From Escherichia phage vB_EQ1: a DNA stretch of 64,000 bases. Position numbers and translations under genes: made by a program. This document shows positions 14,128 through 17,661 of this stretch, piece after piece. The stretch is taken from the sequence record PQ516281; one strand, written 5' to 3'. The first letter of the stretch is position 1, and each line of letters opens with the position of its first letter. The notes beneath the pieces are model-generated. The model was not told the DNA's origin, searched no databases, and was given only the letters and a program-made list of their open reading frames with translations.

Positions 14128-17100
14128 ATGGCTACATTAAAACAGATACAATTTAAAAGAAGCAAAGTGGCAGGAGTTAATCCTACTGCAGCACAATTAG
14201 CCGAAGGCGAATTAGCGATAAACTTAAAAGATCGAACTCTTTTTACTAAAGATGACCTTGGTAATATTATTAGCCTAGGCTTTGCTAAGGGCGGGGATAT
14301 TAACGGTAATGTAACTCAAAATGGTGATTATTTACAAAACGGCTCATATAATCTTAATGGAAACCAGTTTGTTTATGCAGGAAAGTATATCGAATTCTTG
14401 CCTAAAATAGCTGGTAATGGCGCTTGGGCTAACCAACATTCGAATAAAGCCCCTATCTTTACAGATTTAAGTTCAACTACTTCTGTTTCAGAATACCACC
14501 CTTTGATTAAGCAACGTTATAAAGACGGTACTTTTTCGGTAGGTACACTAGTAAGCGAAGGCTCATTTAGAGTTCATTATATTGATTCTACAGCTCCAGA
14601 CAATTCTAAACACTGGGTCTTTAACCGTAATGGTAATTTTATTGTAGATTCTGGTAGTATTGAGGTCCGCGCAGGTAATATTTCTGCATCAGGCAATATT
14701 AACTCTGCCAATGGTATAGTTTCTGCTCCACAAGTTAATACGAAAACCATTGTTTTGGACACAAAAGCATTCGGACAATATGATTCGCAATCATTAGTTC
14801 AATATGTTTATCCTGGAACAGGCGAAGAAAATGGTGTAAACTATCTTCGTAAAGTTCGCGCTAAATCAGGCGGAACTATTTACCATGAAATCGCTTCAGC
14901 TCAAACTGGTAAGAATGATGAAATTTCTTGGTGGACCGGAAATACACTTACTACTAAATTAATGGGTCTTCGTAATGATGGCGCAATGGTATTACGTCGT
15001 TCACTTGCTATTGGCACAATTACCACTGATGAAAATACTAACAACTATGGTTCTCCTACTCCAATGGGAGAAAGATATATTGCTTTAGGTGATGCTGCCA
15101 CTGGTTTAAAATACATTAAGCAGGGTGTTTATGATTTAGTAGGTAATTGGAATTCTGTTGCTTCTATTACTCCTGATAGTTTCCGTAGTACTCGTAAAGC
15201 ATTATTTGGACGCTCAGAAGACCAAGGCGGAACCTGGACAATGCCTGGAACCAACGCCGCACTTTTATCGGTTCAAACCCAGGCTGATACAAACAATGCA
15301 GGTGATGGTCAAACCCACATTGGATATAATTCTGGCGGTAAATTTTCCCATTATTTCCGTGGTAAAGGCCAAACCAACATTAATACACAGGAAGGTATGG
15401 AAATTAACCCAGGTATTCTTAAACTGGTAACTGGTTCTAATAACGTACAGTTTTATGCTGACGGCACTATTTCTTCTATCCAACCTGTTAAATTAGACAA
15501 TGAATTATTTTTAAATAATTCTAATAATATTGCAGGCCTTAAATTTGGCGCCCCTAGCAAAGTTGATGAAACAAGAGCTATCCAATGGAACGGTGGTACT
15601 CGCGAAGGACAGAATAAAAACTATGTGATTATTAAGGCATGGGGTAACTCATTTAATGCCACTGGTGATAGATCTCGCGAAACGGTTTTCCAAGTATCAG
15701 ATAGTCAAGGATATTATTTTTATGCTCATCGTAAAGCTCCAACCGGTGACGAAACTATTGGACGTATTGAAGCTCAGTTTGCTGGAGCTCTTAATGCTAA
15801 AAGTATTAATGCCATCGAAAATTTTAAAGTTAATGGAACAAGCACTTTAGTCGGTAATGTTACCATGTCTAATGGGTTGTTTGTCCAAGGTGGTTCTTCT
15901 ATTACTGGGCAAGTTAAAATTGGTGGAACAGCTGATGCATTAAGAATTTGGAATGCTGAATACGGGGCTATTTTCCGTCGTTCTGAAGATAAGCTTTATA
16001 TTATTCCAACTCCACAGAATGCTGGTGAATCAGGTGGTATTTCTAATTTACGTCCGTTCTATATTACATTAAGTAATGGTAAAGTTTCCATGGATCATGA
16101 TGTAGATATCGGTGGCGGTAGATTTAAAGTAGAAGCATCTGGTATTACAGCAGGTCAGCGTATAACAATAAATACAGCATCAGATGCTATTAGAATAAAT
16201 GCTCCAACACAAGAGTCTTCTAACTTCATCCAAGGACGTAAAGCAGATGTCACAAAATGGTATTTGGGTATTGGCGATGGCGGAAACGTCGTTCGTATGC
16301 ATAGTTACACCTACTCCCATGGTATTGCATTAAACTCTGATACGGTTGATATAGCTAAACCTCTTAGAATAGGTTCAACCCAGATTGGAACCGATGGTAA
16401 CATCACAGGTGGTTCTGGTAATTTTGCTAACTTGAACACTACTTTAGACCGTAAAGTTAATGTTGGCACTTGGTCGGGCGGAGCAGCTGCAGGTTGGTAT
16501 AAATTTGCTACTGTAACTATGCCTCAAAGTACGGCAACCATCCAATTTAAAATTACAGGCGGTAATGGATACAATGTCAATTCACCAGAACAAGCCACAA
16601 TTACTGAAATAGTTCTTAGAACAGGCAATAATAATCCTAAAGGTATTAACGCTACCTTATGGGGCCGGACTGGTAATGGATTTACTAATATAGCAACAGT
16701 TAATACTTCTGGCGATGATTATGATGTTTACCTATACGTTGGAACTTACGCGGACAAACTTATAGTCGAATATGATTATACAGCAAATACCCGTTATATT
16801 TCAGTAGTTGGTCTTAATGGTGTTAACCAAACACCTGTAGCGGAATTACCTACTGGTCATCTGCGTGGTCAAGTGTATATGATGTACTCCGATGCTCAGA
16901 TACCTTATCCGGTCGGTGCTCCGATTCCATGGCCAAGCGATTCAATTCCTGCTGGATTTGCTTTAATGGAAGGTCAGACCTTTGATACCGCAGCTTATCC
17001 TAAGCTTGCTATCGCATATCCTACAGGTACTATTCCTGATATGCGTGGGCAAACTATTAAGGGTAAACCATCTGGGCGTGCTGTATTAAGTACAGAAGCA

Positions 17101-17661
17101 GACGGTGTTAAGTCACATAGCCATAGTGCAAGTGCATCAAACACAGATTTGGGTACTAAGACCACTTCTAGTTTTGATTACGGTAGCAAAACGACTTCAA
17201 GCTTTGATTATGGTACTAAGACCAGTAATACCACTGGCAACCATAACCATACAGTGAGTGGTAATACTAGTTCCGCTGGTGCGCACCAACACGCGCGTTC
17301 AGGTCCTCAGGTACAAGGCGGCATACCCACTAGCATATTCTATGATGGATACAATAGTGCGGGTCCAAACGGCAACGCTAAATTCACTGCAACCGTGAGC
17401 GGTGCTACTGCATCGTCGAATATGGCCAAAACTTCTTCAGATGGTGCCCACACTCATAGTTGGTCAGGAACTACTAGCGCTACTGGTAACCATGCTCATA
17501 CTGTTGGTATTGGTGCTCATTCTCATACTGTTGGTATTGGTGCTCATTCTCATACTGTTGCAATTGGTTCCCATGGACATACAATAACTGTAAATAGTAC
17601 AGGTAATACAGAAAACACAGTTAAAAACGTTGCTTTTAACTATATCGTTCGTTTAGCATAA
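14128..17661 (+). CDS. 37: long tail fibre distal subunit gp37, receptor-recognising
   Basis: 1177 aa; N-terminus [33 protein letters not shown]; C-terminal HxH boxes (GNHNHT, GAHQHA, DGAHTHS, GNHAHT, (GAHSHT)x2, GSHGHT). Confidence 0.95.
17497..17577 (+). repeat. tandem direct repeat (27-bp unit, two exact copies plus one diverged) in gene 37 C-terminal region
   Basis: catactgttggtattggtgctcattct repeated at about 17497..17523 and 17524..17550, then diverged copy; encodes HTVGIGAHS repeats. Confidence 0.8.

Follow-up and report, generated by a model that had tools for sequence, protein, structure and literature searches.

The distal long-tail-fibre gene (gene 37) of Escherichia phage vB_EQ1 was analyzed in a stretch of 64,000 nucleotides (PQ516281), which is called the window here and to whose positions all coordinates refer. 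Gene 37 (14128..17661, + strand) encodes the subunit gp37 of 1177 amino acids (aa). It is very probably the distal half-fibre gene of a Mosigvirus, with a T4-type receptor-binding tip that is one rung longer than the tip of T4. The sequence, the homology, the architecture and the covariation of unit counts formed the basis of this reading, and from them the trimer, the iron content, the needle length and the receptor are predicted.

Architecture of the gp37 tip

The last 258 residues of gp37 (residues 920–1177) matched chain residues 22–242 of the T4 gp37 tip (PDB 2XGF) in phmmer with an E value of 3.4e-80. The Pfam search detected Collar (PF07484, E 1.7e-10, residues 930–977) and gp37_trimer. 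These matches bore out the first-pass annotation of this DNA, which had described a T4-type gp37 tip with metal-binding His-x-His (HxH) boxes. The T4 tip consists of a collar, a six-stranded needle in which the chains run out and back, and a small head contacting lipopolysaccharide (LPS) and OmpC (PMC6957217, PMC9603124, PMC12609058). Seven iron atoms are held by the HxH histidines of the T4 needle, and both the folding and the structure of the fibre depend critically on them (PMC6957217).

Eight HxH boxes were found in gp37, starting at residues 997, 1039, 1053, 1108, 1122, 1131, 1140 and 1149, and no further HxH occurs anywhere in the 1177 residues. T4 gp37 has seven HxH boxes, located at 883–998. 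Three of the eight boxes lie on the ascending strand and five on the descending strand. All seven boxes listed in the first-pass annotation were present, and the one it missed is KSHSHSA at residue 997.

All parts of the tip are encoded on the + strand. The N-terminal part of the collar (knob, D10) domain covers residues ~925–995 (16900..17112), as located by Pfam and the 2XGF alignment with the T4 limits taken from PMC6957217. The ascending strand of the needle follows (residues 996–1055, 17113..17292) and carries HxH boxes 1–3 (17116..17124, 17242..17250 and 17284..17292). From the alignments, the head domain (residues 1056–1107, 17293..17448) is the predicted receptor-contacting end. The descending strand (residues 1108–1160, 17449..17607) carries HxH boxes 4–8, whose first bases are at 17449, 17491, 17518, 17545 and 17572. 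The chain then returns into the collar and ends at the stop codon (17608..17661). This C-terminal return is nearly identical in T4 and all relatives, and the C-terminal 30 residues of gp37 are nearly identical to those of T4. An alignment with the T4 gp37 tip, proposed as a check on the first-pass annotation, showed homology over the whole length of 2XGF and three insertions relative to T4: 10 aa in the ascending strand, ~18 aa in the head and 9 aa in the descending strand.

The insertions in the two strands are repeat units. The descending strand has three 9-aa (27-nt) units (17497..17577, + strand; the third is HTVAIGSHG) and the ascending strand has three 10-aa (30-nt) units (17152..17241, + strand), and T4 has two of each. 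Two strand contacts quoted for T4 are G921-F970 and H929-G964 (PMC6957217). We infer from them that ascending residues 886–914 of T4 lie beside descending residues 978–1006, so that the 10-aa units oppose the 9-aa HxH units. Because of this opposition, the two added repeats would form a single additional rung, one repeat on each side, and so make the needle longer.

By analogy with T4, the vB_EQ1 tip may be a trimer with octahedral axial iron. The three chains would leave the collar as the ascending strand, form the small head and return as the descending strand. Metal ions would staple the resulting six-stranded needle along its axis, and every ion would be bound by six histidines, with one HxH contributed per chain. 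Since there are eight HxH boxes, eight metal sites are predicted, compared with seven in T4. The extra site would be provided by the added 9-aa descending unit HTVGIGAHS, matched by the added 10-aa ascending unit. The head (residues ~1056–1107) would bind the receptor, and the adjacent gp38 chaperone would be needed for folding. A role of the HxH boxes as receptor contacts or as an iron lure was also considered and rejected, because the T4 histidines hold structural iron and specificity maps to the head (PMC6957217).

Pairing of units on the two needle strands

The pairing of units was counted in 252 distinct complete tips, which were collected from a protein search, 80 viral contigs, 50%-identity representatives and phage loci. 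All rows listed in the protein search with the tip were of 450 aa or less. With n standing for the count of 9-aa steps that separate the last HxH boxes, the spacing between HxH1 and HxH2 followed 12+10n, and this rule held for 250 of the 252 tips. The spacing was 22 at n = 1, 32 at n = 2 (T4), 41–42 at n = 3 (vB_EQ1), 52 at n = 4, 62 at n = 5 and 72–73 at n = 6. The 14-aa steps were likewise matched on both strands (0/0, 1/1 or 2/2). In one of the two exceptions the second HxH box has been lost, and with the spacings added together this tip follows the rule. The sole true exception is a metagenomic contig, L005 (2035..2229, IMGVR_UViG_3300030021_000020).

The three-unit class was the commonest (132/252 distinct tips), which indicates that the extra rung is ancient and that the three-unit architecture is old and common. 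A recent duplication as the origin of the third 9-aa unit was considered and rejected, since the three-unit class is the commonest and the copies of the relatives have diverged.

A link between HxH number and needle length has been published: for the phage Bas63, the number of HxH motifs was noted as possibly scaling with needle length (PMC12609058). The two-strand pairing rule and a compensation cycle were not found in the literature.

Identity and turnover of the repeat units

Descending units 1 (17497..17523) and 2 (17524..17550) agree at 27/27 positions, and unit 3 (17551..17577) at 20/27. Exact period-27 identity runs over 17495..17560. Ascending units 1 and 2 share 23/30 DNA positions. 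The 27-bp array had a TRF score of 135 and was the sole array scoring at least 50 in the window. The exact 27-bp tandem copies that had been reported at about 17497..17550 were therefore recovered, the 10-aa repeats proposed alongside them were resolved into the three ascending units, and all repeats lie within the coding region and in frame.

Among 64 distinct related arrays (126 pairs of adjacent units), the identity in the 125 other pairs was 12–26/27, and the window alone reached 27/27. Units 1 and 2 are identical at 22/27 positions in moha, 23/27 in VR25, 25/27 in AV117 and 24/27 in Bas40. What sets vB_EQ1 apart is only that the two units match perfectly in DNA. Both identical units of the window end in AHS, whereas the relatives have AHT and then AHS, so the repeated unit of the window resembles the second unit of the relatives. 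Because of this match, gene conversion could have replaced the sequence of the first descending unit, or this unit could have been lost and restored by re-duplication. The phage VR25, in full vB_EcoM_VR25, is the mirror image, with ascending units identical at 30/30 positions and descending units at 23/27.

About 90 cultured-phage rows were inspected for arm length, and no net length change was found in either repeat arm among them. The length differences among cultured relatives were not multiples of 27 or 30 nt, and where examined (F31 and AV117) they were in the head. L005 showed a clean in-frame loss of one 27-bp unit, with three ascending units and two descending steps. It is a Mosigvirus-like contig, and its gp38 is 96% identical to that of the window. 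L005 may be a genuine intermediate or may result from collapse of the repeat in assembly. Its deletion, together with the identical units in the ascending strand of VR25 and in the descending strand of the window, indicates that unit turnover does occur.

Weighing of the explanations

Several points weigh against a T4-type tip lengthened by one rung. The pairing count takes in related sequences, and its 10 architectures guarantee only about nine independent changes. Units of 10 aa facing units of 9 aa imply a register drift of one residue per rung. The AlphaFold2 monomer of the tip (45-sequence alignment) had a pLDDT (predicted local distance difference test) score of 53 and a predicted template modelling (pTM) score of 0.20, so the longer eight-site needle draws on homology and covariation; a low score is expected for an obligate intertwined trimer. 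Iron as the metal is assumed by analogy with T4. The assignment of OmpC as receptor is a guess from homology, as the head differs from that of Bas40 at 11/52 positions and the head type of AV117 is different.

It is improbable that the exact tandem repeat is a hypermutable site, at which slipped-strand events or unequal recombination would change the copy number and diversify the host range. Two perfect 27-bp copies beside a third with 20/27 identity offer a slippage substrate, the close relative L005 lacks exactly one unit in frame, and homogenised units on either strand in different lineages speak for ongoing turnover. Tetart et al. reportedly described, in 1996, T4 mutants of altered host range that carry duplications within this gene 37 region. 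Against this stand the constant arm lengths of the cultured phages and the divergence of the copies at synonymous sites in nearly all relatives (12–26/27), and L005 comes from a metagenome assembly. Since the strands were matched in all but two tips, changes in the units of a single strand appear to be selected against. A classical contingency locus would have many identical units, in numbers that differ between close relatives. Two identical copies of an in-frame 27-bp unit with a diverged third, in a group of about 90 cultured relatives whose arms keep their length, are remote from that. The units also encode needle rungs, whereas T4 specificity lies in the head (PMC6957217). The idea that slippage alters host range repeats what Tetart et al. 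(1996, 1998; cited in PMC3157838 and PMC6957217) had published as the 'His box' hypothesis, for which this repeat gives weak support. An assembly or sequencing artefact is very improbable as the source of the perfect 27-bp duplication. Perfect short tandem repeats are occasionally mis-called, and the exact sequence is present in one other record only (OQ031495.1), which is probably from the same isolate. However, the array is in frame, its three descending units are the number predicted by the three ascending units, the close relatives all have the same length here, and 54 bp lie well within one read.

We tentatively propose a broader model, which may hold but is doubtful. The tip needle of the T4 and lambda-Stf fibres would be built of countable rungs, each of a 10-aa ascending unit and a 9-aa HxH descending unit, with the 14-aa units paired separately. 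Its length would evolve through slippage on one strand and a later compensating change, the identical units of the window and L005 would be snapshots of this process, and the length would tune the reach of the head. The adaptive part taken as an explanation in itself, in which rungs gained or lost in paired fashion set how far the head extends through the LPS or O-antigen layer, is rather unlikely. In it, slippage would first alter one strand, as in L005, and a second change on that strand or on the opposite one would then compensate for it. The six length classes (n = 1–6) with matched strands, the one mismatched intermediate (L005) and the freshly identical units on one or the other strand in different lineages agree with it. 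The sampled T-even relatives, however, are constant in needle length and vary in their heads, which points to the head as the variable determinant, and simple gene conversion explains the perfect identity equally well. The T4-type tip with one extra rung is kept as the preferred reading.

Head domain and receptor

The head (residues 1056–1107) exceeds the T4 head by 18 aa in length and has no sequence relation to it. It is of the type found in moha, JS09, VR25, AV110 and Bas40, and the head of AV117 is different and of T4 length. The tip of Bas40 (FelixPlatter) aligned without gaps at 86% identity, and its head was identical at 41/52 positions (79%). The primary receptor of Bas40, which shares the gene arrangement of vB_EQ1, is OmpC, as determined by complementation (PMC8594841). 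The Mosigviruses AV117 and AV118, which have T4-type gp37 and gp38, also need OmpC (PMC10844046). Our best guess from these homologies is that the receptor of vB_EQ1 would be OmpC, possibly with the LPS core.

The head is the specificity-determining part in T4 (PMC6957217), and published alignments of Mosigvirus relatives place the differences in the head (PMC10844046). It had been suggested that the fibre tip itself binds the receptor. That part stood as the expected mode, given a T4-type tip with a T4-type gp38; the contact is predicted for the small head between boxes 3 and 4 and not for the repeats. The specificity-determining head can be delimited to 17293..17448.

A separate length change was seen in the head of gene 37 of F31 (vB_Eco_F31), the receptor-contacting part. 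Compared with the window and JS09, it carries a 5-aa tandem duplication (QGGVP beside QGGVP/QGGIP).

Shaft module and source of the extra length

T4 gp37 has 1026 aa, and gp37 of vB_EQ1 is 151 aa longer, in agreement with the earlier estimate of about 150 extra codons. About 37 of the 151 extra residues are in the tip, and ~140 are in a separate shaft module. This module (residues ~775–918, 16450..16881, + strand) is inserted between a 14-residue motif and the collar and was recognized by BLASTP, tblastn and PHROG matches. It has no counterpart in gp37 of T4, JS09, AV110 and F31, and BLASTP detected it in moha and AV117. In tblastn, the module showed ~55% aa identity to a segment of gp37 of T2, K3, IME08 and Shfl2, and ~40% identity to fibres of Felixounavirus and Salmonella phages. 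Its profiles were phrog_21552 and phrog_3299.

A homologous-protein search with the module returned one fragment, and no solved relative was found by sequence search. The single-sequence model of the module was all-beta with low confidence (pLDDT 49). Foldseek of this low-confidence model against PDB gave nothing below E 0.017, with only generic beta-sandwich or CBM-like matches.

Gene 37 is, judging from these alignments, a typical modular mosaic, and one module seems to be placed at different positions along the vB_EQ1 and T4 fibres. In BLASTP, gp37 residues 59–204 (14302..14739) resembled T4 gp37 residues 648–808 (31% identity, E 2e-13).

Comparison with known fibre tips

The closest studied system is the T4 gp37 tip (PDB 2XGF; Bartual et al. 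2010; mutational map PMC6957217). The two tips share the collar, the six-stranded HxH needle, the head and the chain returning to the collar. T4 also shares the conserved C-terminal sequence, the adjacent gp38 chaperone and an intergenic hairpin. Compared with T4, vB_EQ1 has eight instead of seven HxH boxes, the extra 10-aa and 9-aa units, an 18-aa-longer unrelated head and the 140-aa module before the collar.

The same eight-HxH architecture was found in gp37 of moha, AV117, JS09, VR25 and Bas40 (Mosigvirus/Tequatrovirus), with the same head type except in AV117. The two 27-bp units differ at 2–5 positions in these phages, whereas those of vB_EQ1 are identical. JS09 gp37 is without the 140-aa shaft module.

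The lambda Stf-family side tail fibres of lambdoid and other E. coli, Shigella and Salmonella prophages have C-terminal regions of ~160–240 residues that are 57–77% identical to the window tip, and they obey the same two-strand unit rule. They differ in their N-terminal shafts, virion contexts, number of HxH boxes (5 to 10) and heads. A 'T4- and lambda-based RBP (receptor-binding protein) family' has been described (PMC9659904). The long and short fibres of Bas63 (Felixounavirus) have T4-like tips with six or seven di-histidine motifs (PMC12609058). Bas63 belongs to a different phage family, and no ascending/descending pairing is stated for it there (PMC12609058).

The repeat of vB_EQ1 is a needle rung outside the head, unlike the duplications in the work of Tetart et al. 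In that work (1996, J Mol Biol 258:726; 1998, J Mol Biol 282:543), the conserved GxHxH motifs of gene 37 were reportedly proposed as sites of recombination at which adhesin segments are duplicated or exchanged, with a changed host range as the outcome. The duplications are said to include the specificity-determining segment.

The fibre tip of vB_EQ1 is of a well-known kind, with close sequenced and characterized relatives, and the current understanding of fibre function is unchanged. The two-strand unit rule and the evidence for homogenisation and turnover of units are the additions. For annotation, a confident label for the gene is T4-type gp37, with the tip as the predicted adhesin and OmpC as the likely receptor. 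The unit rule may serve as a design constraint for chimeric or resized tips, in which a 10-aa ascending unit should be changed only together with a 9-aa descending unit. It also offers a quick check for mis-assembled fibre genes.

Gene 38 and genome setting

The window phage is a Mosigvirus (RB69-like T-even phage), and the window showed 91–96% identity to moha, AV117 and mar005p1. The assignment of gene 37 came from its open reading frame, its relatives and its best profile, phrog_1699 'long tail fiber protein distal subunit' (E 4e-261). Over the full length, gp37 was 89% identical in aa to that of phage moha and 85% to that of AV117 in BLASTP. No NCBIfam profile matched gp37 or gp38.

OQ031495.1, an unverified partial record, had 100% DNA identity to the window wherever it is not N. 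It carries 598 N within gene 37, in place of window 15654..16923, and the window fills the gene 37 sequence missing from it.

The fibre cluster has the standard T-even order, with gp34 (8380..12255), gp35 (12264..13391), gp36 (13454..14119), gp37, gp38 (17689..18240) and a holin (18250..18909) downstream of gp38. Gene 38 (+ strand) encodes a T4-type tail-fibre assembly chaperone of 183 aa, which has 68% identity with T4 gp38 over 179 aa and matches Pfam Caudo_TAP. The T2/T6-type gp38 adhesin, which caps gp37, has ~260 aa, glycine-rich motifs and hypervariable segments, whereas this gp38 is shorter and T4-like throughout, and gp37 terminates in a needle of the T4 type. The T4-type chaperone partner named in the first-pass annotation was thus upheld. 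Given this combination of a T4-type gp37 tip and a T4-type gp38, the fibre tip itself is expected to bind the receptor. The arrangement is expected to be of the T4 kind, with the tip as adhesin and gp38 as chaperone, and not of the T2 kind with a gp38 adhesin.

A C(UUCG)G hairpin (17665..17682, + strand; −16.1 kcal/mol, z = −2.1) lies between the gene 37 stop codon with AAGGAG and the ATG of gene 38. The T4 sequence at the same position is almost identical. A hairpin that brings the Shine-Dalgarno sequence near the start codon has been described for T4 gene 38. The hairpin of vB_EQ1 probably brings the distant Shine-Dalgarno sequence (AAGGAG) near the gene 38 start codon in the same way.

Two minor observations were made upstream. 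At 13397..13414, between genes 35 and 36, another hairpin with a UUCG loop (GGGAGAC TTCG GTCTCCC) precedes a T-run; the site is terminator-like. Residues 58–128 of gp35 matched the Pfam domain ILEI (interleukin-like EMT inducer, PF15711) with an E value of 7e-7, just above the cut-off.

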